Positions 1,860 through 20,332 of a stretch of 49,086 bases of DNA are shown piece by piece. The stretch lies in the IMG/VR virus record IMGVR_UViG_3300045988_131209; one strand, given 5' to 3'. The position numbers and the translations under genes were made by a program. Every line of letters begins with the position of its first letter. The stretch's first letter is position 1. The notes under the pieces were generated by a model. The model saw only the letters and a list, made by a program, of their open reading frames with translations. It was not told where the DNA came from and searched no databases. The stretch comes from a virus.

Positions 1860-2103
1860 GATCTTTTAAATTGAAACTTTTCATATACTCACAATCTCTA
1901 TCACAAGGGCAATTATCATCATAGCAACTATCGTTGTGACTGTTCCAGCAAGGGCATTGCTTATGATATGCCTCTAATTTGGCTTTATCTCGATCTGCTT
2001 TCATTTTAGCCTTAATATGATCCGGCAATGCTTCTTGTGCTACCGGATCGAAAGTGATACATTTCGTTTTATCCATAATGTTCAATTCCATTTTGTTATA
2101 CAT
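1816..2103 (-). CDS. Cys-rich hypothetical protein
   Basis: ORF with CPCWNSHNDSCYDDNCPCDRDC cluster; overlaps the downstream gene by 44 nt, start uncertain. Confidence 0.45.
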   Translation of the reverse strand: MYNKMELNIMDKTKCITFDPVAQEALPDHIKAKMKADRDKAKLEAYHKQCPCWNSHNDSCYDDNCPCDRDCEYMKSFNLKDHESICKLTDNRFPA

Positions 2104-2276
2104 ATCATTTTACTGTGAACATATCTCTTTCGGTTCTGTTCTTTTGAATTCTTTAATGCATTCGAAAAGACCCTTTAATTTGAAAAGGGGCATTCTTCTA
2201 CATTCTCCTCGCATATAGACATAAATGGTATTTTGAGCAATGCCATTTTTTTTAGTTTTTAGCTATTAATAATATG

Positions 2277-2630
2277 TCACTTTACTTCTATTACGTTTCT
2301 GTATATTCCTAAGTATGATAGTTCAACCCCACACACTCTGATCGTGTAAGTTGAATCTTTTTTCATTTTTCCAGCAAACTCAGGGTAAGCCAATAGCCCA
2401 CTGATATTGATACGGAAAGTCCCTTTATCTGAATATACAAGATAGTATATTTCTGTATTGAAACCGTCTTTATTTCCAGACATCTTTTCAATCTTATCAA
2501 CCTGATTCACTTTGATCTGTATATCCGTAGGATTATAAAAGGTCGTTAAATACAGGAAAGTCGTAACCACAATTGCGGCTGATAAATACATGAATACAGT
2601 TCTTTGTTTCATCTTTTGTATTATTTTCAT
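2277..2630 (-). CDS. Hypothetical membrane-anchored protein
   Basis: 117 aa with N-terminal hydrophobic segment VFMYLSAAIVVTTFLYL. Confidence 0.5.
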   Translation of the reverse strand: MKIIQKMKQRTVFMYLSAAIVVTTFLYLTTFYNPTDIQIKVNQVDKIEKMSGNKDGFNTEIYYLVYSDKGTFRINISGLLAYPEFAGKMKKDSTYTIRVCGVELSYLGIYRNVIEVK

Positions 2631-2654
2631 TTCCTTTTAATTATTAGTTTTTAA

Positions 2655-2975
2655 TCACCCTTTCATCCTCCCCAAAAACGACAGCCCCAACACGTCATAT
2701 TTCAAGCCGATAACAGCAAACTCTAACATTGCGTTTTCGTCTGCAAGGTCGTTAATGCGCAAAACTTGGTAACTGTTTTGAGAGGTCTCATAAAAGGCGT
2801 TCATATCGTCAATATACTCTATAACTTCCGCATAGCCTTTCCGGGCAAAGAATCCGTCCAAGCTCGCGATGATATGTCCTTCCAGGTAATCGCCACCATA
2901 AGCGGTGGCGATCTTGTCCTGTCTTCTTAATGCGTATCTCATTATTTTTCGATTTTTATAACAAGTTTGCGCCAC
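2655..2975 (-). CDS. Hypothetical protein
   Basis: 106-aa ORF on the operon strand, tightly packed. Confidence 0.5.
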   Translation of the reverse strand: MAQTCYKNRKIMRYALRRQDKIATAYGGDYLEGHIIASLDGFFARKGYAEVIEYIDDMNAFYETSQNSYQVLRINDLADENAMLEFAVIGLKYDVLGLSFLGRMKG

Positions 2976-3391
2976 CCGTATTTACCAGCCGGCGTGACCT
3001 CGTACGACCAAACATTTACGGGCAACAGTAGCCCGATCATTGAGAGATGTTCCCTCTGTGGGGGACATTCCGATTTTAAGCCGACAGATATTGTGTAGCT
3101 GTCATTTTGCTCTTGGATAACAGCATCCCTAAAGCCTACGTAACGCTCTAAAAAGTTTTTGACTTGAAAAACAAACCGTGGAAAATCGGGTAGGGGGACA
3201 AGTTCGTCCGCCTCTTCGTCCACATGGTAGCATTCCGGGCAGTAGTGCTTGCCATTGTGCTCAATCCAGTCGGATTCCATAGCGTTTTCTAAAACAGAGT
3301 CTTCATCTGTATAACCGTTGATTCCACTGGATTCAAACAGTTCTTTGCACCTGTCGCATATCAAGGTGTAGTAAATTTCAGGCTTTATCAT
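2942..3391 (-). CDS. Hypothetical zinc-ribbon protein
   Basis: CDRC...CPEC Cys pairs; ATGA-type coupling with neighbours. Confidence 0.5.
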   Translation of the reverse strand: MIKPEIYYTLICDRCKELFESSGINGYTDEDSVLENAMESDWIEHNGKHYCPECYHVDEEADELVPLPDFPRFVFQVKNFLERYVGFRDAVIQEQNDSYTISVGLKSECPPQREHLSMIGLLLPVNVWSYEVTPAGKYGWRKLVIKIEK

Positions 3392-3618
3392 ATCTTTTGG
3401 GTTTTAATCGTTAATGAGTCAGATATCAAAGTTCTGATATCCGGTTCTTTGCGCTCGTTCCAGGCCTTTTCGACATTGGTCAGAGCCTCTGTTATCATGC
3501 AAAAGAGCGTCAAAGGCATTTCACCGCAAGAGGGACAGTAAAAACATACATTCCCTTTTTTGTCTATCCGGTACTGCACTGACAGGCTTTTGACTTCGTT
3601 TGTGTTACTCTTTTCCAT
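3388..3618 (-). CDS. Hypothetical small protein (CxxC)
   Basis: 76 aa, CFYCPSCGE motif. Confidence 0.5.
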   Translation of the reverse strand: MEKSNTNEVKSLSVQYRIDKKGNVCFYCPSCGEMPLTLFCMITEALTNVEKAWNERKEPDIRTLISDSLTIKTQKI

Positions 3619-3754
3619 GCTCTATTTCCATTTCTTTCTTGATTCTATCTATCATTCTCTGAAACTTGGCTGCCACATACTCGCAATGGATAGCCAAGTT
3701 GCGATCGCGCTCCCTTTCGAGCCGCTTTAGTTCTTCTATCCTCCAGTCGTTCAT
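3605..3754 (-). CDS. Small hypothetical protein (49 aa, below ORF-track cutoff)
   Basis: ATG overlaps the stop of the upstream gene (ATGA at 3751-3754). Translates MNDWRIEELKRLERERDRNLAIHCEYVAAKFQRMIDRIKKEMEIEHGKE. Fills an otherwise empty gap. Confidence 0.4.
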   Translation of the reverse strand: MNDWRIEELKRLERERDRNLAIHCEYVAAKFQRMIDRIKKEMEIEHGKE

Positions 3755-4308
3755 TGTTTTTCTCCTGCTTTAATCTCATACTTGTCGTAATAAACCTTTT
3801 CCCGATCCGTAAACATCTTATCCCTAACGGTGTCGAGTAGGTGCATAAAGTCAATCTCATTGTTGACGAGATTGTTGTCGTCTTTAAAAAAGTGTTTTAC
3901 GAAATTCCGGTAGCCGATAACGGCTTTCCTTAATTCGCGCCTCTTCCGTTCCCATTCCGGCACAGGGACATATCCCCTGTCCTGCATGTAGGCAAAGAAC
4001 ATGTCGATATGGTAGAGCGCCATATCTGCCTCATTCAAAGAGAGTGAAAGAATCTTTCCGAACCACGACCTCAAAGACTTGTCCATGTTGCGGTTGTCTT
4101 CGTCGAATTTTACAAGCTCCATAGCGTATGACAGCTCTTCTCTCAGGTTGTCAGCCCGTTCTGCCAATATAGCTGCATCCATATAGCGGCCTTGGCGCAC
4201 GGCTTTCGCCGCCTTATCCATCGTTTCGCGGATATCGCGCTCAATGATGTATACCGGTCTCGTCTTCGTGTTCATGGCAACAATTGAGCTTCTGTGCATC
4301 TCACCCAC
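3751..4308 (-). CDS. Hypothetical protein
   Basis: 185-aa ORF on the operon strand. Confidence 0.55.
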   Translation of the reverse strand: MGEMHRSSIVAMNTKTRPVYIIERDIRETMDKAAKAVRQGRYMDAAILAERADNLREELSYAMELVKFDEDNRNMDKSLRSWFGKILSLSLNEADMALYHIDMFFAYMQDRGYVPVPEWERKRRELRKAVIGYRNFVKHFFKDDNNLVNNEIDFMHLLDTVRDKMFTDREKVYYDKYEIKAGEKQ

Positions 4309-4915: not shown

Positions 4916-5705
4916 AATTGCCAGATATTACTTTTTCGAAATTCGTTGGTTTTATAAGCCAATCAAAAGAAGCCCGCCAGCCGTTTTTATTCTGCCCTTT
5001 AAGGAAATCGCTGTTTAACGCCTTTTGTATCATTTGGGCAAATGTTTCCTTGCCGTATGTCTTGATACGGGCATTGATCATCCCTTTCCGCTTGTCGGAT
5101 AGGGGCATTCGTATCACGCCGAATACGCCTTGCGTTTTTTCGTTAAAGAATTTTACAAGTTCGGAATAATCGATTCTTTCATCGTGCGGCTGGAAAGTCG
5201 CACATACAGGAGATTCGTTAGAATCTACTGTAATATTTTCTTTTCTTTTCTTTACTTTACTTTCCTTTGTGGTGTTTATGTCTACATTAATACCAGTTGA
5301 AGGTGTATTTATGTCTACATTAATTATCAAATAGGGGTATTCCTCCGATTTTTTTCTTCTTTTTATTGCTTCAAAATATCTTTTTTGGATTCCATGACTT
5401 GTTAAAATCTTTACCGAATCAAAAAGGTCTTTATCGAAAAAGCCCCATTTGACTAAGCGATTTGTAATTTGATCAAGTAAATCCGAACTGACACCCGGCA
5501 GATTTTTCAGTAGTTTCATTTTCAACATTTCATTCCACTCTATGAAGTATCCGTTTCGATATACCGCACAAAGCAGCTTTATTGTTGTTATTTCTCCTTT
5601 TATTCCGAATTCCCCGGATATAGCCTCTATCTTTTCATCGTTAAAGAAGTCCACATCGAAAGAAAAGTATTTCAATCCTTCTTCTTTAGGTCGTGCCATG
5701 CTCAT
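4794..5705 (-). CDS. DUF4373 / DnaD-like phage replisome organiser (replication initiation)
   Basis: N-terminus KYFSFDVDFFNDEKIEAISGEFGIKG (Lin1244/DUF4373-like); C-terminus WRASFDWLIKPTNFEKVISGNYDN (phage replication C-terminal domain pattern). Confidence 0.7.
   Translation of the reverse strand: MSMARPKEEGLKYFSFDVDFFNDEKIEAISGEFGIKGEITTIKLLCAVYRNGYFIEWNEMLKMKLLKNLPGVSSDLLDQITNRLVKWGFFDKDLFDSVKILTSHGIQKRYFEAIKRRKKSEEYPYLIINVDINTPSTGINVDINTTKESKVKKRKENITVDSNESPVCATFQPHDERIDYSELVKFFNEKTQGVFGVIRMPLSDKRKGMINARIKTYGKETFAQMIQKALNSDFLKGQNKNGWRASFDWLIKPTNFEKVISGNYDNKSGNDRTNDRSSGRDFGKFFQGIAEGIARADYEERNG
5275..5324. repeat. Two 17-bp direct repeats TTTATGTCTACATTAAT (33-bp period) inside the organiser gene; iteron/ori candidate
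   Basis: Exact copies at 5275-5291 and 5308-5324, next to a polypyrimidine (CTTTT)n tract; encode INVDINT twice. Confidence 0.4.
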
Positions 5706-5795
5706 TTCTTTTCGAGTACTCCATTTTATGTTGTATTTAATTTTTAGAGAATATTATTTAAGGGCAGACCTATTTGCTACCCTTAAAGGAATGAT

Positions 5796-6599
5796 TTATG
5801 CAAATACAGCGTGACTATTAACGTTCAGAAATTTATCTACAAAATAAATCTGACCCTTTCCTGTGACTTTTGTTGTTGTAGATACAAGTACAGATCCATC
5901 GGGCTTATTAATGGTCGTTTGCTTTATTTCAAATAGCCCTAATTCCATTGATTTTTGCGATGGCTGATTATAGTATTGCCCTTTTTGACATAGGTATCCG
6001 TTTTTACGGAGCCACTCGAATAATCTGTTTTGTCCGATCTTGATACCGTTTTGTTGTAATATCTTTGCCAACTCTGCTATCAGGCATGAGCGTCGGGATG
6101 TAGATACAGCATCGGCGAATAATACCTTGGGAGCGTCAGACTGAATCTTTTGCTCGGCCTTAATACGTTTTTGTTGTTCCTCTTTGAGGTTTGTGGCCAA
6201 TTGGATCAAGAAATCGGGTGAAGTCAAAGCCTTTTCCAATGTATTGTTTGTCATATATGCACCATGCTTGCGGATGGAAGGGAGAACCTCTCCGCATACC
6301 CAATCTTGAAATGGTTCGGCTTGTGGCTTGTCGGATCGCATGATTACTTTGTAGAGGTTTTGTTCGTTAATAAAAGTGAGCATCACTTCTTGCTCGGTAG
6401 TGACACCATACTGATTTGTTGTTTTTGAGACCCCCTTAATTAGACTAACCCCGTCTTGTTTTAATCTGTTTTTTGTCGGAGTGACTTGTAATTCCAATAC
6501 TTTACAGATGTCGGCTAAGCAGAATAAAGGGTTATCACTTGTCCCGGCTACTCTCACTTCGCCGAAACGTTCGTTCTTGAATATTTCAATTTCATTCAT
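5796..6599 (-). CDS. Antirepressor, Bro-N domain + KilA-C/ANT C-terminal domain
   Basis: N-terminus FKNERFGEVRVAGTSDNPLFCLADICKVLEL (Bro-N); C-terminus PKVLFADAVSTS...IAELAKIL...NRLFEWLRKNGYL (KilAC). Confidence 0.8.
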   Translation of the reverse strand: MNEIEIFKNERFGEVRVAGTSDNPLFCLADICKVLELQVTPTKNRLKQDGVSLIKGVSKTTNQYGVTTEQEVMLTFINEQNLYKVIMRSDKPQAEPFQDWVCGEVLPSIRKHGAYMTNNTLEKALTSPDFLIQLATNLKEEQQKRIKAEQKIQSDAPKVLFADAVSTSRRSCLIAELAKILQQNGIKIGQNRLFEWLRKNGYLCQKGQYYNQPSQKSMELGLFEIKQTTINKPDGSVLVSTTTKVTGKGQIYFVDKFLNVNSHAVFA

Positions 6600-6641
6600 G
6601 AGATATAATGTTTTATTTTTTTTGACAATATGATATACACT

Positions 6642-6659
6642 CCCCGGCCGAAACCGGGG
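6642..6659 (-). other. GC hairpin CCCCGG-N6-CCGGGG between the 6685 gene and the antirepressor gene
   Basis: Read directly; no U tract follows on the coding strand, so attenuator/processing site rather than a clear terminator. Confidence 0.3.
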
Positions 6660-6684
6660 CTGTAAATATGTGAGTAGGGTAGAC

Positions 6685-6942
6685 TTATTTAAATGTCTTT
6701 TTGATTTCGTCCAAAATCCTTTCTGTTGTCCTTCGGTTGTGCCAATTGCTCCATTCGGTGTATAAACCTTTATGGGTAAGGAAGAAGAAACAAGCGTTTT
6801 TCAGTTCTGCTTCCTGTGCAGACACGATACGAGACCATTTTAGCTGATCCCGAAGAAACTCAACTTCTTTTAAAAGATTCTCATTGGCTTTAATGAGTTT
6901 GTTAATCTTGATTGTTTGCTGACGTTGTGCAAAAGCAGTCAT
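6685..6942 (-). CDS. Hypothetical protein
   Basis: 85-aa ORF. Confidence 0.5.
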   Translation of the reverse strand: MTAFAQRQQTIKINKLIKANENLLKEVEFLRDQLKWSRIVSAQEAELKNACFFFLTHKGLYTEWSNWHNRRTTERILDEIKKTFK

Positions 6943-7199
6943 AACGCACCTCCTTTCTGTAGAAGGATTGCATCATACATCCCGGCAAGCAGGAACGCAA
7001 TGACTATTAACACTAACACCTTGGTGTAACCCTTAGCGTTTTCTATGGTTTCGCACTCGCATACGCCAAGTGGCATAGCGTTGTAGATACGGGCTACGGT
7101 AGCCCATGTGAAGAATTTAGTTTTCATCTGGCTGTGACAATTAGATGAATTAAACAAAAAAGCAGTTCTATATAATCCAAACTTGTCACAGCCACACAT
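6939..7199 (-). CDS. Hypothetical protein with C-terminal TM segment
   Basis: 86 aa, VLVLIVIAFLLAGMY hydrophobic stretch. Confidence 0.45.
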   Translation of the reverse strand: MCGCDKFGLYRTAFLFNSSNCHSQMKTKFFTWATVARIYNAMPLGVCECETIENAKGYTKVLVLIVIAFLLAGMYDAILLQKGGAL

Positions 7200-7297
7200 A
7201 TACAGAGATATATGAACGGATTATAATAGAACTGCCTATGCTTTCTATTATCTCTTAGCCTACTCGCTTGCAGTGCTTATGTATGACTGTGACACCG

Positions 7298-7305
7298 CAA
7301 AGATA
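7298..7305 (-). promoter_or_regulatory. Bacteroides-type -7 box TATCTTTG (internal early promoter)
   Basis: Plus-strand caaagata in the 145-bp intergenic gap 7200-7344. Confidence 0.4.
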
Positions 7306-7344
7306 ACCAAAATTCCGTAACGCCAAACAAAACGTAGATAAAAA

Positions 7345-7554
7345 TCACTTGCCATCCTTTACATAAACCGCCTTTGAATTGAGCGTCTTTACAACTCCTA
7401 TTTTGTCGGACTTGTAAAGGTCATTCAGTTCCGACCTTGCCGATTCAAGGACGGTGTTCATTATTTCAACTTCCGGCACATGGTCGGGTGTTATCTTATC
7501 CTTGCGCCTCTTTTCTTGCAGGCTGCGGATAAGTTTCAACATATCCATCTCCAT
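7345..7554 (-). CDS. Hypothetical small protein
   Basis: 69-aa ORF. Confidence 0.5.
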   Translation of the reverse strand: MEMDMLKLIRSLQEKRRKDKITPDHVPEVEIMNTVLESARSELNDLYKSDKIGVVKTLNSKAVYVKDGK

Positions 7555-11717: not shown

Positions 11718-11741
11718 GGATAATTGATTTTAATATGTTTG

Positions 11742-11809
11742 TGGACGCCGGGGAATCGAACCCCGCCCTTTCCCTTTTGAAGAATGCTCTACCGTTGAGC
11801 TATGCGCCC
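11742..11809 (-). tRNA. tRNA-like RNA #2 (68 nt; canonical D and T arms, truncated anticodon loop)
   Basis: GGGCGC-A-TA-GCTC-AACGGTA-GAGC-A-TTCTT-CAAAA-GGGAA-AGGG-CGGGG-TTCGATT-CCCCG-GCGTCC-A; G3:U70, A73. Confidence 0.55.
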
Positions 11810-12073
11810 GTGCCGGTCTTCCCCGGCTGCCAGTATCAAAAACAAATAATAGCCTGCCTGCCTCCCGGCGGTAATATTTTAAATCTCATCCTACCGTGCT
11901 CCTGCCTACCGGACCATTGCAAACGTCAAGGTCTACCACTTTCAAGGGTTTGCGGTTGCCGGTCTGAGGCGCGGGTTACACCTTGGATGATATCTTTATC
12001 TATCGACCAAATACCTCTTTAAATTTTTTATCCAAGGCATTAAGTATTCTAATTCTTGTTGCCGGATCACAAC

Positions 12074-14708: not shown

Positions 14709-15164
14709 ATGGAAAATATTGTAAAACAGAGAATTAAAGAAGCAATTGAATTTAGAAAAACCAGTATTAACGCTATAAGTAAGGTGATAGGGGTGAAGCA
14801 AAATACCCTGTCAAGGCAAATTAATACAGATAATCCAATGCCGCTTAGCAATGTATTGCTATTGATTGATGCGTTAGAAATTGATCCGTCGTGGCTTCTT
14901 ACCGGCAAAGGCGAAATGACCAAGCAGCCCACGGACCAAGAGACACCAGTCAGTACCAATAACTCGGACATGAAATCTGCTTTTTTGAAAAAGGAAGCCT
15001 TTTATTTAAGGCAGATGAACGAACGGTTGGACGACCTCATTAAGGCTAACGAAACAATCGAAAATTTAAAGGAAGAGGTAGAATCTCTCAAAAAACAGCT
15101 GGAGTTGGCAGAACAAGATTCAAATAAAATGGCTGTAAATGTCGTAAAACATAAGTTCGCTTGA
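14709..15164 (+). CDS. cI-like repressor (XRE-family HTH + C-terminal coiled coil)
   Basis: ATG at 14709; IKEAIEFRKTSINAISKVIGVKQNTLSRQ HTH; divergent from the early operon. Confidence 0.75.
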   Translation: MENIVKQRIKEAIEFRKTSINAISKVIGVKQNTLSRQINTDNPMPLSNVLLLIDALEIDPSWLLTGKGEMTKQPTDQETPVSTNNSDMKSAFLKKEAFYLRQMNERLDDLIKANETIENLKEEVESLKKQLELAEQDSNKMAVNVVKHKFA

Positions 15165-15216
15165 AACGTTTTCCTCCCGGCCATTGTTTTATACAAACAA
15201 TGTAAACTTTATCACG

Positions 15217-15489
15217 ATGGAAGAAGAAGATAGTGAATTATTGGAAAGGCTCGTCGTAATCGAGCTTAAAATAGACGCAATCCTTAGAGAGTTAGCCTTG
15301 TCTATAAGTAAAGAAAAGAACTTGATGTCTGGGATGAATACCCTTTTGGAAGAAGCAAGGGCACGCAAAAACACGGATAATGCCGAAGGAAAGATGCTGC
15401 AAATGGAATGTAGGGTTGTTGATATGTTAAGTAAAGTTAATGGGGGGGGGGTAAACAGGCTCTTCTATAGGAGAAGCCACTATCTTTAA
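15217..15489 (+). CDS. Hypothetical coiled-coil protein containing a G10 homopolymer
   Basis: ATG at 15217; G10 run 15442-15451 encodes GGG. Confidence 0.45.
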   Translation: MEEEDSELLERLVVIELKIDAILRELALSISKEKNLMSGMNTLLEEARARKNTDNAEGKMLQMECRVVDMLSKVNGGGVNRLFYRRSHYL

Positions 15490-15726
15490 TAATGTATAAG
15501 GAGATTAAAGAAGGAAGCAAATTCAGGATACAAAATATTAAAATAATAATGATGGATGCTTTAGGATTTATATTCACGGTCGGAATAGTTGTAGTGGGTG
15601 GCATATTGATATGGACCAACACTAAGTCAGGTAAAAAATGGCTGGAGGGCCTATAGTGTTTTGCTTCGGTAAATGCAATTAGCAATTGCCAATAAAAGCC
15701 ACGAAATATGGCAAGATGGAGCAGAA

Positions 15727-15748
15727 GTTTCGCAATTGTTTCGCAAAT
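15727..15748 (+). repeat. 2 x 11-bp tandem GTTTCGCAA(T/A)T, arm-type site candidates (P arm)
   Basis: Read directly; same unit as 15950-15993. Confidence 0.6.
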
Positions 15749-15804
15749 AGGTTTTATACTGATTTGTAACATACAATATCATAGCCGATTAGGATGTTTT
15801 GGAA

Positions 15805-15852
15805 ATTAGATTCCGGTTCTGAAGGTCGTGGGTTTGAATCCCACCCTGGTCA
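15805..15852 (+). other. attP core: 3' part (anticodon arm to discriminator) of a tRNA-Arg(CCG)
   Basis: TTAGA-TTCCGGT-TCTGA anticodon arm (anticodon CCG), AGGTC variable loop, GTGGG-TTTGAAT-CCCAC T arm, CCTGGTC-A acceptor; no matching 5' acceptor strand upstream. Confidence 0.7.
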
Positions 15853-15882
15853 CAGGTTTAAAAATCAATGTTTTAGACATTT

Positions 15883-15920
15883 AAGCCGTATTTCTTTTAT
15901 AGATTTACGGCTTTTATTTT
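15883..15920 (+). terminator. Rho-independent terminator after the tRNA fragment
   Basis: AAGCCGTA-N15-TACGGCTT followed by TTATTTT. Confidence 0.55.
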
Positions 15921-15949
15921 GTTCACTTTTGCTCAAAATCGCTACATTT

Positions 15950-15993
15950 GTTTCGCAATTGTTTCGCAATTGTTTCGCAATTGTTTCGCAAAA
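15950..15993 (+). repeat. 4 x 11-bp tandem GTTTCGCAATT, arm-type sites (P' arm) / int leader operator
   Basis: Read directly; begins at the last base of a TACATTTG -7 box (15943-15950) and ends 13 nt before the int ATG. Confidence 0.65.
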
Positions 15994-16006
15994 AAAGAAT
16001 AAGGAT

Positions 16007-17233
16007 ATGGCAACATTTAAAGCAGAAGTGCAGAAGCAACGGAAAGATGGGACTTTTAATATAAAGATACTTGTCACTCATAACAGGCAGCTAAAGAGAT
16101 TGCCGACCGGCATTTACATAACCAAGGATGATATGACACGATCCGGCAAAATCAAAAACCAAAAAATACTGGATCAGATAGATGATTTAATAATGCGTTA
16201 CAGGAAGAAGACTAATGAGCTATCTGTTGCAATAAACAACATGTCTATCGATAAGCTGGCAAGATATCTATGCGAACCGGAGGTTGTCTCTATTGACTTC
16301 TTGGAAGTGTTCCGGGATTACATAGACGAAAATCCGGATAAGAAAGGGGTGAGGAATTACAAATCAGCTCTAAATTCCCTCGTCAAATTCCTTGGAAGAA
16401 ACAGTCTGGATATTTCAGAGATAACAGTTCCTTTCTTGGAAAAATATGCTGCTTCTCTTGGAAAAGGTCGTGCGGTGTCCTTGTATCTTGGCAGCATGAG
16501 GCATGTTTATTCTTATGCGAAGCAAAAATACAATGACGAAGACGCAAAAAGAATATTGATCCCTTATTCGCCATTTTCACGGTATAAAGTACCCCGTCAG
16601 AATGTAGCGGAAAAGAAGGCTATAAGTGCGGAGCTTATCCGAAAGATAATAGAACTTCCGTACGATGCCACTTCGCGCGGGAAAGATAAAGAGAATCGTT
16701 ATAATTTGGCAAAGGATTGCTTTATCCTGTCATTTAGCCTTATAGGCACTAACTCTGTTGATTTATATAATGCGGAGATTTACGAGAACGACGAAATTGT
16801 ATATTGCCGGACTAAAACGAAGGATCGCCGAAGCGATAAGGCAAGAATCCAAATAAAGGTGCACCCCCATATATTACCTATATTTAAAAAATACATGGAT
16901 AAAACAGGGAAAAGGGTTTTTCGCTTTTATCAGATGTATGCAGATCAATCGACATTTAATGCAGCTTTGAACAAAGGGTTGAAGGCTGTAGGGAAAAAGG
17001 TTGGCATTCCCGGCCTTAAATTTTATGCAGCCCGGCATTCCTGGGCCACAATAGCCAGGAACGACTTAAAGACGGACAAATCAACCATAGATGAGGCCCT
17101 GAATCATATAGATAAAAGATTGTCTGTTACAGACTTGTATATAAAAAAGGATTTTTCGATTATCAACGAGGTTAATAAATCGGTCTTGGACTATGTATTC
17201 AAATCCCGTAAACCTCGTAAATCCAAACAGTAA
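16007..17233 (+). CDS. int: Tyrosine integrase with N-terminal arm-DNA-binding domain
   Basis: ATG at 16007 (the track ORF's 5' extension covers the tRNA fragment); AARHSWAT, LNH and LYIKK catalytic-region motifs; N-terminus MATFKAEVQKQRKDGTFNIKILV arm-binding type. Confidence 0.85.
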   Translation: MATFKAEVQKQRKDGTFNIKILVTHNRQLKRLPTGIYITKDDMTRSGKIKNQKILDQIDDLIMRYRKKTNELSVAINNMSIDKLARYLCEPEVVSIDFLEVFRDYIDENPDKKGVRNYKSALNSLVKFLGRNSLDISEITVPFLEKYAASLGKGRAVSLYLGSMRHVYSYAKQKYNDEDAKRILIPYSPFSRYKVPRQNVAEKKAISAELIRKIIELPYDATSRGKDKENRYNLAKDCFILSFSLIGTNSVDLYNAEIYENDEIVYCRTKTKDRRSDKARIQIKVHPHILPIFKKYMDKTGKRVFRFYQMYADQSTFNAALNKGLKAVGKKVGIPGLKFYAARHSWATIARNDLKTDKSTIDEALNHIDKRLSVTDLYIKKDFSIINEVNKSVLDYVFKSRKPRKSKQ

Positions 17234-17376
17234 TGTGATTTTTGGCGGTCTCAAAAATGTTTATTGAGGTATTGTTTGATTCGTGATATTTTTATTTCTT
17301 TGTTCATCTGTAATCAATGGGAGGATTAAAATTTATAGTTTGGATATTGTTAAACTTATATAAATAATAAAAGTTC

Positions 17377-17817
17377 ATGTCTCTAATAGTATTAGTCGCG
17401 GTTTTTGCAATCCTGTTTTTTTCAGCCAAGGTATTGCTGTATTTAATCATTCATGATAATTCCAAGCGAAAACATAAGGCTGGATATTACAATCCATACA
17501 AGACAGTGGACGGTTACGAAAACCTTGAATTAAAAGGCATATATTACAGGAAACTGTCCAATCGCGATATGGGACTGTTTTATGGGTATGCCATGGCAGA
17601 ATCAGATAATCAATATGACAAATATGCGGTTTCTGTTTATAATGAAAGGGGTGTTCTTGTGGGATATGCTCCTGGTGGTAATTATTCGCTCCATGAATAT
17701 ATCTTGAAACATGGTGGAAGTGTGAGGGCTTTTGGTGCAATATGGAAAGATGAAGATGATGAAGATGAAGATGGCGAAGGGCGATTTAGAGGCCGCGTGA
17801 ACATACAATTTGATTAA
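17377..17817 (+). CDS. Membrane-anchored HIRAN-domain protein with acidic tail
   Basis: N-terminal TM LIVLVAVFAILFFSAKVLLYLII; HIRAN motifs LKGIYYR and AESDNQYDKYAVSVYNERGVLVGYAP; DEDDEDEDGEG tail. Confidence 0.65.
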   Translation: MSLIVLVAVFAILFFSAKVLLYLIIHDNSKRKHKAGYYNPYKTVDGYENLELKGIYYRKLSNRDMGLFYGYAMAESDNQYDKYAVSVYNERGVLVGYAPGGNYSLHEYILKHGGSVRAFGAIWKDEDDEDEDGEGRFRGRVNIQFD

Positions 17818-17854
17818 TCGTTATAGATAAAGGTAATTAAAATAATAATCAAAT

Positions 17855-18313
17855 ATGAAACGTATCAAGATTTTTACTATGCTATTAGTGTTAGTAGGTG
17901 CATGTGGGTGTTCTGCAATTAAATATCCATATATCCAAGATGCAGGGATGATCGACTATTCAAAGTATGCCGAAAAGGGATTTTTCATTACAGAATCTAA
18001 CTCTGTTAGTTTTGAATATATTCCTATCGGAAGCGTATCGGCCCGCTCCGTGAGTGGTTATGAGGCGGTTGGCATAAAAACTGGTAAAGAGTTATTAGGC
18101 GATGATATTTACCCTGTAAATCGCGACGAGAAAGCGAAAATAAAATATGGTAAGTTTATCGAAGGCACACCAGAAAGGGCGATAGAAGAGCTATATAAAA
18201 AGGCTGTAAAATGGAAGGCGAACGGAATCATCGGATTAACAATAACGCCGATAACAACCACTAATCCCGTATCAGAAGGTTTTTTTGTTACAGGCATGGC
18301 GATAAGAAAATGA
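17855..18313 (+). CDS. Lipoprotein with YbjQ/UPF0145-like C-terminal domain
   Basis: Signal peptide + lipobox LVGAC|G; C-terminus ANGIIGLTITPIT...GFFVTGMAIRK resembles UPF0145. Confidence 0.55.
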   Translation: MKRIKIFTMLLVLVGACGCSAIKYPYIQDAGMIDYSKYAEKGFFITESNSVSFEYIPIGSVSARSVSGYEAVGIKTGKELLGDDIYPVNRDEKAKIKYGKFIEGTPERAIEELYKKAVKWKANGIIGLTITPITTTNPVSEGFFVTGMAIRK

Positions 18314-18489
18314 TCATGAAAGCGTATTTTGTTATAGCGATGCTCTTTGAGCTGTTTTTGGTGTTGTACACGGGGGAGATGGTAGATAGAGGGCTTATCG
18401 GAACCGCGGTTACTACCGGATTATGCGCTATAATATTGGCGATAATTTGTGAGGCGTATATTGTGGTATGGGGACTCAAAAAGAAGTAG
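18310..18489 (+). CDS. Small two-TM membrane protein (59 aa, below track cutoff)
   Basis: ATGA overlap with the lipoprotein stop; MIMKAYFVIAMLFELFLVLY...GLCAIILAIICEAYIVVWGLKKK. Confidence 0.45.
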   Translation: MIMKAYFVIAMLFELFLVLYTGEMVDRGLIGTAVTTGLCAIILAIICEAYIVVWGLKKK

Positions 18490-18644
18490 GGGGATTATCA
18501 CCGGTACTATCACCGATATATACCCCTTTGATAAAAAATGCCCGAGCATCACTGCCCAGGCATTTTAAAAAAAATAAAAAAGTACATGAAATACATGCAC
18601 TTGGCAAATATATAAATTTATTTCGTAATTTAATATCACGAAGG

Positions 18645-18830
18645 TCATTCTTTTATGACAAGCTCTATATTGAGATATTCCAATATAGACTCAATCTTAT
18701 TTTGTCCCAGGTTCATTTTCCCGTTAAGGAATAGGGACATCGCGCTTTCCGAAAGCCCAATGTGCTCCGCAAGGTCTTTGCTTTTTACCTTGCGGAGCTT
18801 CATAGCCTCTTTTACAATATCTCTTATCAT
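18645..18830 (-). CDS. Small XRE-family HTH protein (Aca-like / antitoxin-like), cassette 1
   Basis: 61 aa, KSKDLAEHIGLSESAMSLFLNGK HTH. Confidence 0.7.
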   Translation of the reverse strand: MIRDIVKEAMKLRKVKSKDLAEHIGLSESAMSLFLNGKMNLGQNKIESILEYLNIELVIKE

Positions 18831-18832
18831 GA

Positions 18833-19117
18833 TTAAAAAACAACAATTTGGAGTTTGTAGCCGTTATTATCTGAAAATTGGTATACTTCGCAATTTTCAT
18901 TGCAATATTCGGACTCTTTTATGTCATCGCAAGCATCGACAAGCCCATCAAATGATGAGCCTTCTAATTCGGAGATAAAGTTGTTGATAATGTCATCATC
19001 TTGATTCTGCATAATATCAAGCCCGGAACCACCGTTGCCCAATGTTGCCAATACCAAAGAGTTGTTGCTTGACAATTCACTCTTTACAAATTCTATAACT
19101 TCCTTTTTTGTTCTCAT
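18833..19117 (-). CDS. Strongly acidic 94-aa protein (18 D/E vs 6 K/R), cassette 1
   Basis: Counted from the translation; no recognised domain; 2 nt upstream of the HTH gene. Confidence 0.55.
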   Translation of the reverse strand: MRTKKEVIEFVKSELSSNNSLVLATLGNGGSGLDIMQNQDDDIINNFISELEGSSFDGLVDACDDIKESEYCNENCEVYQFSDNNGYKLQIVVF

Positions 19118-19146
19118 GACTATTTATTTTTAATTGTTATTACTTG

Positions 19147-19170
19147 TTTTTGATTACACTACAAAGATAC
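19147..19170 (-). promoter_or_regulatory. Promoter copy 1: 24-bp identical block containing -7 box TATCTTTG
   Basis: TTTTTGATTACACTACAAAGATAC identical to 20071-20094. Upstream (minus sense) 2 x TTTAAGTAATACCAAA at 19177-19192 and 19210-19225. Confidence 0.55.
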
Positions 19171-19277
19171 GAAAAGTTTAAGTAATACCAAACTTTTAAA
19201 GGTGAAAAATTTAAGTAATACCAAATATTTAACATTTAGATGGTAATTCAATGTGTTAATTTCCGCCTATATCACCA

Positions 19278-19493
19278 TCAGACTAAATCGACTTTTTTTC
19301 CGAGTACGTTTGCTATGCTTTCAAGCAGGTCAAGCCGGACGGCGAATTTGCCCGCTTCGATCCGGTAAATAGTGCTTTGGGCTATGCCACAACGCGCCGC
19401 GAGATCGCGTTGTGATAAACCCGCTTGTTTTCTTAAATCTTCAATCCTTCGACCGATGCGTATTCGGTCGTTTAACTCGTAATTATCTTCCAT
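19278..19493 (-). CDS. Small XRE-family HTH protein (Aca-like), cassette 2
   Basis: 71 aa, LRKQAGLSQRDLAARCGIAQSTIYRIEAGK. Confidence 0.75.
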   Translation of the reverse strand: MEDNYELNDRIRIGRRIEDLRKQAGLSQRDLAARCGIAQSTIYRIEAGKFAVRLDLLESIANVLGKKVDLV

Positions 19494-19497
19494 ATTT

Positions 19498-20028
19498 TTA
19501 TTTATTAATTAGTTTTTCCACTGCTTTTACATAAGGAGCTGTTTTTTGTCTCTCCATGTAAGCTACATACTGTTTTGCTATATGTTCTTCCAGTCTATTG
19601 GCTTCTTGATCGGCTTCGGGGGATATTTTTCTTAATTCGGGGATATTGTATGTCATTCCGTCAATAACATACTCAAAACCGTTTAACAGGGCTGTCCATC
19701 CGTTTACCTCAAACTTAAAATCGCTGATTTTGCCCGTGTGAACAAGTTCAACAGCTTCTTCTAATGTCGGTACTGTTTCTTCTTTTTTTTCTTCTTCTTC
19801 CTGTTTTTCAGGTTCGTTCTCAACAAACTCAAAGACAACAGCTGCATTAAATTTTGATTGTCTTCTACCCGAATAGCATACGGAAGTAAAATTAGAATAA
19901 AACTCGTCAAATTCAGCCTGAGAATCGAAGTCTTTAGACCATGTTTTTGTAGACGGATCGTAAACGAATCCTTGGTTCTTCAGGCTTTCTTTTGCATTGA
20001 ATGTGTTTTTAACTGCTATTGCTTTCAT
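19498..20028 (-). CDS. Acidic 176-aa protein with poly-E linker, cassette 2
   Basis: ENEPEKQEEEEKKEETVPTLEE linker between two small domains; no recognised family. Confidence 0.55.
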   Translation of the reverse strand: MKAIAVKNTFNAKESLKNQGFVYDPSTKTWSKDFDSQAEFDEFYSNFTSVCYSGRRQSKFNAAVVFEFVENEPEKQEEEEKKEETVPTLEEAVELVHTGKISDFKFEVNGWTALLNGFEYVIDGMTYNIPELRKISPEADQEANRLEEHIAKQYVAYMERQKTAPYVKAVEKLINK

Positions 20029-20070
20029 TTTCTTACGCCGCTTATAGGTTGCCGCCCTGTTCTAATTGTT

Positions 20071-20094
20071 TTTTTGATTACACTACAAAGATAC
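20071..20094 (-). promoter_or_regulatory. Promoter copy 2 (same 24-bp block, -7 TATCTTTG) with adjacent 12-bp palindrome
   Basis: Identical to 19147-19170; TGCAAATTTGCA perfect palindrome at 20111-20122; AAATATTTAACA shared at 19223 and 20147. Confidence 0.55.
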
Positions 20095-20332
20095 AACTTT
20101 TTTATTTGAATGCAAATTTGCAGTCAAATATTTTTCGAGAAACGTAAATATTTAACACTGTTTAAATGTTTGGCGTTGCGGGGTATCCCGATTTGTAGCC
20201 CTAAGACGACAAAGGTATTTTTTCAAACAAAATGATAAGTAATGATAGGATATGATATAAAATGAAATGTTCAAAATGTATAATTAACTGTATTTTAGCA
20301 ATAAGTAATTTGTTATTTAGACTAATTCTAAA

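Follow-up and report, generated by a model that had tools for sequence, protein, structure and literature searches.

An exchangeable integrase-proximal slot in a temperate Bacteroidota-type phage holds genes for a membrane-anchored HIRAN protein, a predicted lipoprotein, and a two-transmembrane peptide

We analyzed a viral DNA of 49,086 nt (IMG/VR record IMGVR_UViG_3300045988_131209; the whole stretch is called the window), in which three small genes, A, B, and C, follow the gene of a tyrosine integrase (int). Positions 17338-18522 (about 1.2 kb) are a moron cassette of separately mobile envelope genes, occupying an integrase-proximal variable slot of a temperate Bacteroidota-type phage, and this assignment is much more certain than any function of the cassette. 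For the function, we tentatively favor superinfection exclusion, with a chance that we place somewhat below even: the genes would be envelope cargo expressed in the lysogen, and the membrane-tethered HIRAN domain of the gene A product would act as a trap for DNA 3' ends. An earlier reading of the same DNA, made without database searches and called here the original prediction, had regarded A, B, and C as one trio. The slot and its genes are as follows (TM, transmembrane; aa, amino acids).

17338-18522, + strand: exchangeable cargo slot on the 3' side of the integrase gene, here occupied by A, B, and C
17377-17817, + strand: gene A, 146 aa, thaL-like protein with a TM anchor and a HIRAN domain (open reading frame with Pfam HIRAN match, AlphaFold2 model with Foldseek matches); predicted parts are a TM anchor at about residues 2-25, a basic juxtamembrane KRKHK, a short linker, and the HIRAN domain at about residues 45-146
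17855-18313, + strand: gene B, 152 aa, predicted lipoprotein with a remote YbjQ/UPF0145-like fold; lipobox Cys19; PHROG 19292
18310-18489, + strand: gene C, 59 aa, two-TM peptide, lineage-restricted and frameshifted in some relatives

The boundaries of the slot were defined by comparison with three loci whose integrases are 97-100% identical (L205, L206, and L207; the prefix L denotes the loci compared in this study). Homology to the window stops by position 17337 and resumes at 18523, with the left homology of L207 stopping at 17213, and conservation of the right flank begins at 18523 and takes in a terminator hairpin. Between these flanks, the window, L002, and L128 carry A, B, and C. L207 carries a 136-aa B-family lipoprotein gene followed by a pair of HATPase-like and STAS-like (DUF4325) genes (1882-3855), and L205 and L206 carry the same pair together with genes for two small membrane proteins, which in L205 come before it (5282-7434). 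The presence of three alternative cargos between the same flanks, next to integrases of such high identity, indicates that 17338-18522 is an exchangeable cargo block in a hot spot. The pair encodes a 302-aa HATPase-like protein, which resembles the N terminus of DrmA (E = 4.5e-8), and a 116-aa STAS-like DUF4325 protein, and it is possibly a two-gene conflict system; its presence in sister phages suggests that the slot gathers conflict-type cargo. Just right of the slot, a minus-strand open reading frame with tandem QSEGGTPTR repeats differs in copy number between phages (L205 7713-8003; L207 4134-4775).

Phages that share positions 19147-20174 of the window have a second cargo slot beyond the equivalent of 20174. 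It holds the gene of a 281-aa TM-anchored HIRAN protein (L113 2098-2943; L117 1127-2350), which is preceded by a gene for a 121-aa B-family lipoprotein in some phages and not in others. Two hot spots in related phages thus hold the same gene families. A slot with sharp boundaries and varied cargo is a natural experiment, and it offers a route to more lysogen-expressed conflict genes in Bacteroidales phages.

The product of gene A passes the gathering cut-off of the Pfam HIRAN family PF08797 (27.1 bits against 24.7; E = 3.8e-6), and its cluster representative has a precomputed PF08797 match as well. The AlphaFold2 model of A, built on 48 relatives, has a predicted local distance difference test (pLDDT) score of 91.2; in it, a short linker joins a long helix at the N terminus (residues 2-28) to a beta-barrel. 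In a Foldseek search of the PDB, the top 17 matches are all HLTF HIRAN or lp_0118 (probability 0.90-1.00; E down to 1.5e-4). Residues N78, Y80, and D81 of the NxYD motif of A align with N91, Y93, and D94 of HLTF, and N78 and D81 are kept in at least 90% of the family. Y57 of A probably corresponds to Y72 of HLTF, as judged by motif position only. The HIRAN domain of HLTF is specific for 3'-OH ends, where the 3'-OH is read by D94 and the terminal bases are pinched by Y72 and Y93 (PMC5773155). The HIRAN domain of A keeps this predicted pocket for 3'-OH ends; with the gathering score passed and HLTF HIRAN as the best fold match, the earlier call of a TM anchor joined to a HIRAN domain holds. The acidic stretch DEDDEDEDGEG, previously described as a tail, is rather an insertion within the final beta-hairpin of the HIRAN fold; it is peculiar to this lineage and missing from the closest relatives. 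In a tblastn search of GenBank phages with A, no significant match was obtained even at E = 10.

An exhaustive search for relatives of A returned 256 representatives at 50% identity with E of 1e-3 or lower, 68 of them at 1e-10 or lower. An N-terminal hydrophobic helix lies at residues 1-25 in 130 of the 150 best relatives, and some relatives carry HIRAN domains in tandem or 2-3 TM helices. The same architecture in a lysogeny location has been named thaL in a pneumococcal prophage; it was noted there in a study of the conflict between prophages and transformation, which does not report its function (PMC12637031). Contrary to what had been supposed, a membrane-tethered stand-alone HIRAN is consequently not unusual; TM-anchored HIRAN proteins (TM-HIRANs) are a sizeable family of at least 256 clusters at 50% identity that in gut Bacteroidota is associated with the lysogeny modules of prophages. 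The median length of the tail before the helix is 0 residues, and more lysine and arginine residues stand after the helix than before it in 116 of 131 relatives. By the positive-inside rule, this bias would place the HIRAN domain in the cytoplasm. The linker between helix and HIRAN domain is polar, spans 20 to over 100 aa, and looks like a tether.

TM-HIRAN genes directly follow those of CI-like repressors in five loci (L003, L104, L118, L150, and L201), adjoin tyrosine or serine integrase genes in L177 and L184, as gene A does in the window, and lie at the extreme ends of prophages in L111 and L124. Further loci were found independently of any lipoprotein with a degenerate DNA motif for AExDNxYDxYA[VI]. 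A 176-aa TM-HIRAN of the L111 type accounts for 26 of these loci (5 of 20 viral-contig matches, namely L111, L119, and L122-L124, and 21 of 78 metagenome matches), and it is the commonest TM-HIRAN in gut metagenomes. It stands alone, with no lipoprotein partner, after a run of helix-turn-helix (HTH) genes at the extreme end of the prophage, which in L124 is beside a host tRNA gene and lon.

Gene B encodes a predicted lipoprotein with a signal peptide and a lipobox, whose cysteine is invariant across 49 B homologs. The original prediction of a lipobox lipoprotein stands, and only the cysteine changes: the family alignment identifies it as C19 and not C17 of "LVGAC", and so does position 16, which varies among A, V, and I; close relatives have V or I there, and neither is allowed at position -1 of a lipobox. 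A weak LPAM_1 match was found in a relative of B in L117. B belongs to phrog_19292 (E = 1e-16), a PHROG with no assigned function. Its family comprises at least 80 protein clusters and is represented in over 100 IMG/VR loci and in 25 Bacteroidota genomes; the family motifs are FFITESNSVSFEY, ANGIINL, and TGMAIK. The UPF0145-like domain assigned earlier survives only as a remote similarity and not as a Pfam assignment. The match of B to YbjQ_1 (PF01906) is below threshold (14.4 bits against 23; E = 0.058) and covers only the C-terminal 41 residues, and a profile of the B family against the PDB gave UPF0145 proteins in four of the five best matches, all weak (E of 0.02-0.8). The structure model of B has a pLDDT of 86, and its top eight Foldseek matches are UPF0145/DUF74 pentamers (1vr4, 1y2i, and 3qkb) at a probability of 0.96-0.99, although the same eight are weak by E (0.06-0.3) and by TM-score (0.35-0.40, normalized to the query). 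B is therefore only remotely YbjQ-like.

Within phages, the B family is found in many places: some members lie in lysogeny modules, and others follow tape-measure or terminase genes. A 125-aa B homolog lies between menD and menB in the men operon of a Dysgonomonas chromosome (L097 3025-3402), showing that the family has cellular, non-phage members, and another lies near tsaB and gmk in Muribaculaceae (L101). Only one unannotated record among GenBank phages matched B, and we found no open paper that connects YbjQ with either HIRAN or phages.

Genes A, B, and C are co-directional and lie downstream of int on the + strand (open reading frame list and Pfam), and the stop codon of B overlaps the start codon of C in an ATGA at 18310-18313, as read in the sequence. 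Relative to relatives that are 95-96% identical in DNA, the ratios of synonymous to nonsynonymous differences are 4-5:1 for A, 9-11:5-6 for B, and 6:2 for C, but an antisense open reading frame at 18288-18479 shares its wobble positions with C, so the count cannot tell C from the antisense frame. No relative of C below 89% identity is present among 5.8 billion clusters, and no C homolog was found in the other loci checked (about 200). C is frameshifted and cut to 40-44 aa in L273 and L275, and it differs between L002 and the window at 1 position in 180 nt, with 24 differences in the flanking noncoding DNA. In L274 and L275, C is directly behind a short lipoprotein gene. The L275 cassette, which has a different integrase, consists of a 119-aa B-family lipoprotein gene and C with the same ATGA junction, and the slot, entirely in view, contains no HIRAN gene. 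C thus travels with B and not with A, and it seems dispensable. The coherent trio that had been proposed is not supported: C is confined to its own lineage at 89% identity or more, it is broken in two relatives, and it accompanies a B-family gene without A in L275. The trio itself was not found beyond near-identical copies, and elsewhere pairs of the A and B type have other third genes (L003, L104, and L107). The third gene of L003 (6830-7507), after those of the HIRAN and lipoprotein, encodes a protein of 225 aa that begins with two TM helices and has weak, sub-threshold matches to S_4TM, STING_LBD, and LeoBC (E of 3e-4 to 0.05).

We then considered whether A and B belong together. HIRAN is absent from 99 of 108 loci of B-family lipoproteins, and among about 16 TM-HIRAN lineages obtained with the lipoprotein-independent motif, about 4 (roughly 25%) have a YbjQ-like neighbor and 12 have none. 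One and the same 281-aa TM-HIRAN is accompanied by the lipoprotein in L114 and L117 but not in L108, L113, and L121, and near-identical phages differ by one gene (L108 versus L114, and L104 versus L105 for HIRAN). The divergence of the HIRAN proteins is uncorrelated with that of the lipoproteins across paired loci (Spearman -0.04; Mantel p = 0.53). These results do not bear out an obligate coupling of A and B, as each gene mostly occurs without the other, and A, B, and C are not an obligate three-component machine. We read the pattern as separately mobile cargo genes that have repeatedly come to lie side by side.

A real two-component module is the alternative that survives best, and we consider it rather unlikely. 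A TM-HIRAN and a YbjQ-like protein would act together across the envelope or near the membrane, with C as an optional accessory; for example, the lipoprotein would sense or plug at the envelope and the HIRAN domain would act on entering DNA. Tight same-strand adjacency of A-type and B-type genes (gaps of 5-61 nt) recurs in both gene orders in about 7 divergent lineages (the window, L003, L104, L013, L088, L114/L117, and L107, the last with one small TM gene between HIRAN and lipoprotein), as such a module would predict. Every TM-anchored HIRAN match in the lipoprotein loci is at most one gene from the lipoprotein, the exception being an anchor-less HIRAN frame about 3 kb away in L003. In L116, a canonical cytosolic YbjQ_1 protein (E = 7.8e-28; 777-1718, - strand; 313 aa with a C-terminal extension of about 200 aa of unknown type) is encoded between a CI-like repressor gene and that of a 136-aa TM-HIRAN (309-719, - strand), and gut metagenome contigs L174 and L189 have the same arrangement. 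The share of TM-HIRAN lineages with a YbjQ-like neighbor also exceeds the background of 69 integrase-related loci, whose roughly 41 arrangements include a HIRAN gene in 1 and a lipoprotein gene in 2. However, this enrichment comes from small numbers, and short lysogeny slots make any two cargo genes adjacent. The separate occurrence of either gene, the lack of co-divergence, and the one-gene differences between near-identical phages argue against a module, as do the predicted compartments, which are cytoplasmic for the HIRAN domain, periplasmic for the lipoprotein, and cytosolic for the YbjQ protein of L116. Lipoproteins of 341-358 aa beside 312-aa TM-HIRANs (L110 and L125) were tried as members of the B family and rejected, being unrelated to B and without a Pfam match.

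The features that surround the slot on the lysogeny side are as follows.

15729-15995, + strand: probable attP, with a tRNA-Arg(CCG)-like core at 15787-15853 and 11-bp TTTCGCAATTG repeats around the core
16007-17233, + strand: tyrosine integrase (Arm-DNA-bind_5 and Phage_int_SAM_5), with Pfam and PHROG matches
18535-18566, no strand assigned: hairpin, a likely bidirectional terminator closing the cassette, with runs of T and A on either side, in the conserved right flank

The 11-bp repeats number two at 15729-15750 and four in tandem at 15950-15995, and together with the tRNA-Arg(CCG)-like gene upstream of int they probably make up the attP core and the arm sites of the integrase. The fold of the 116 nt at 18485-18600 has a minimum free energy of -27.3 kcal/mol (z-score -3.4), and the convergent HTH gene is ended by a second, minus-strand terminator at 18602-18580. 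The three co-directional frames, the ATGA overlap, and the hairpin were all found at the coordinates originally given, and the adjoining, co-directional integrase gene agrees with the lysogeny-side location that had been assigned to the genes. A Bacteroides-type -7 box, TACATTTG, is located at 15943-15950 before int and is the sole exact consensus promoter box upstream of the series from int to C, so the cassette may be expressed by read-through from int. A sigma-70 promoter scan gave fewer sites than shuffled controls, the sigma-70 model being uninformative for Bacteroidota. GenBank phages gave no DNA match to positions 15000-20000 of the window. In the early-gene region, ARAGORN reports a tRNA-Phe with the unusual anticodon AAA (11741-11810, - strand).

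A role in superinfection exclusion or abortive infection, as in the original prediction, is a reasonable hypothesis. For the cassette as exclusion cargo, we counted the placement of TM-HIRANs in lysogeny modules, the precedent of thaL, the defense-like cargo of the slot, the separate mobility of the genes, the conserved pocket residues of the HIRAN domain, and the predicted topology of A. On this reading, A, B, and C would be expressed in the lysogen through read-through from int or from an unrecognized promoter. A would sit in the inner membrane by its single N-terminal helix, with the HIRAN domain held on the cytoplasmic face by the polar tether, where it would catch incoming DNA by its 3' end at the inner membrane and thereby block entry or circularization. 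B would be a periplasmic lipoprotein that acts alone, like known phage exclusion lipoproteins, and C would be a small two-TM peptide translationally coupled to B. Several observations weigh against exclusion by such cargo. No exact Bacteroides -7 box was found between int and A. The cytoplasmic placement of the HIRAN domain has the positive-inside rule as its sole basis. Sequence and profile searches gave no similarity to characterized exclusion proteins or defense systems. The B homologs in housekeeping chromosomal contexts suggest that B may serve host physiology and not exclusion, and adjacency of HIRAN and YbjQ-like genes is commoner than simple stacking of cargo would predict.

A conserved 3'-OH pocket on a predicted cytoplasmic tether offers a concrete and cheaply testable hypothesis, the capture of DNA ends at the site of entry. 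A more general and speculative version, which we find doubtful, is that TM-HIRANs are a widespread class of prophage exclusion factor that traps the entering 3' ends of phage genomes or transforming single-stranded DNA and that repeatedly teams with YbjQ-like proteins in Bacteroidota. On that version, the mechanism of exclusion would be new, acting by recognition of DNA ends and not by blocking of a receptor or channel.

Distinctly unlikely is that the genes are cargo for lysogenic conversion or host fitness unrelated to incoming DNA, which would make the cassette routine moron biology. The lipoprotein would then alter envelope physiology, and the DNA of the host or of the prophage would be the target of the HIRAN domain, for instance to control induction or to attach the prophage region to the membrane. 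The B homologs in core chromosomal contexts (L097 and L101) and the B genes after tape-measure or terminase genes in phages are consistent with such a role, but TM-HIRANs are found strictly with prophage lysogeny modules and prophage ends, and defense-like cargo occupies the same slot in sister phages.

A slimmer chance still is given to TM-HIRANs as shields of the prophage against other incoming DNA, trapping the 3' ends of transforming single-stranded DNA and so blocking "chromosomal curing". Transforming single-stranded DNA enters 3' end first; however, most Bacteroidales hosts are not known to be naturally competent, and nothing in the window bears on transformation. The 3'-OH specificity of HIRAN (PMC5773155) and the notice of thaL in a study of prophage-transformation conflict speak for such a shield, although that study gives thaL no function (PMC12637031).

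Least probable, and in our view very unlikely, is a one-protein sensor-effector of abortive infection in which the binding of many 3' ends of phage DNA would draw the anchors together and so harm the membrane: the additional TM helices or HIRAN domains of some relatives speak for it, and a sensor domain joined to TM helices resembles known membrane effectors, but the helix is unconserved in sequence beyond its hydrophobicity, the only PADLOC match is limited to the HIRAN core, and a single unconserved helix on a variable polar tether is easier to reconcile with a passive anchor than with a pore.

Finally, we compared the cassette with known systems. That PADLOC match is PDC-M03B (E = 4e-4; 27-29 residues of the HIRAN core), a component of PDC-M03, a candidate system of HipA plus HIRAN (PMC13245101). 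PDC-M03 was rejected, since there is no HipA-like kinase in the cassette or its flanks, and its HIRAN model is without the TM anchor of A. With this domain-level match as the only one, PADLOC, NCBIfam, and PHROGs assign A, B, and C to no named system and no function, in agreement with the original prediction, which did not recognize the combination as a named system. The thaL protein shares with A an N-terminal membrane anchor, a HIRAN domain, and a place in the lysogeny module of a temperate phage (PMC12637031). The two are likened by architecture and place and not by sequence; the host of thaL is Gram-positive, in contrast to the Bacteroidota-type phage studied here, and a YbjQ-like neighbor is not reported in the pneumococcal prophage. 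The HIRAN domain of HLTF and lp_0118 (PDB 4s0n, 6kcs, and 3k2y) resemble A in fold (Foldseek probability 1.00) and in the residues of the NxYD pocket. Both are soluble, whereas A is predicted to be tethered to the membrane, and the HIRAN domain of HLTF is a module of a fork-remodelling enzyme, whereas A has no catalytic partner. B resembles the YbjQ/UPF0145 (DUF74) pentamers in a C-terminal motif, G-A-N/D-G-I/V-I ... G-T/M-A-I/V-K, and differs from them in being exported as a predicted lipoprotein and in its distinct conserved N-terminal half, which contains FFITESNSVSFEY. Membrane proteins and lipoproteins with which prophages exclude other phages include Llp of T5, Cor of phi80 and N15, Ltp of TP-J34, lactococcal Sie2009, SieA of P22, and Imm of T4, and we know of no HIRAN or YbjQ-like domain in any of them. 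In place and type, the cassette resembles these classical exclusion genes, which are small envelope genes that are expected to be expressed from the prophage and that lie within or beside its lysogeny module, between the genes of integrase and repressor.

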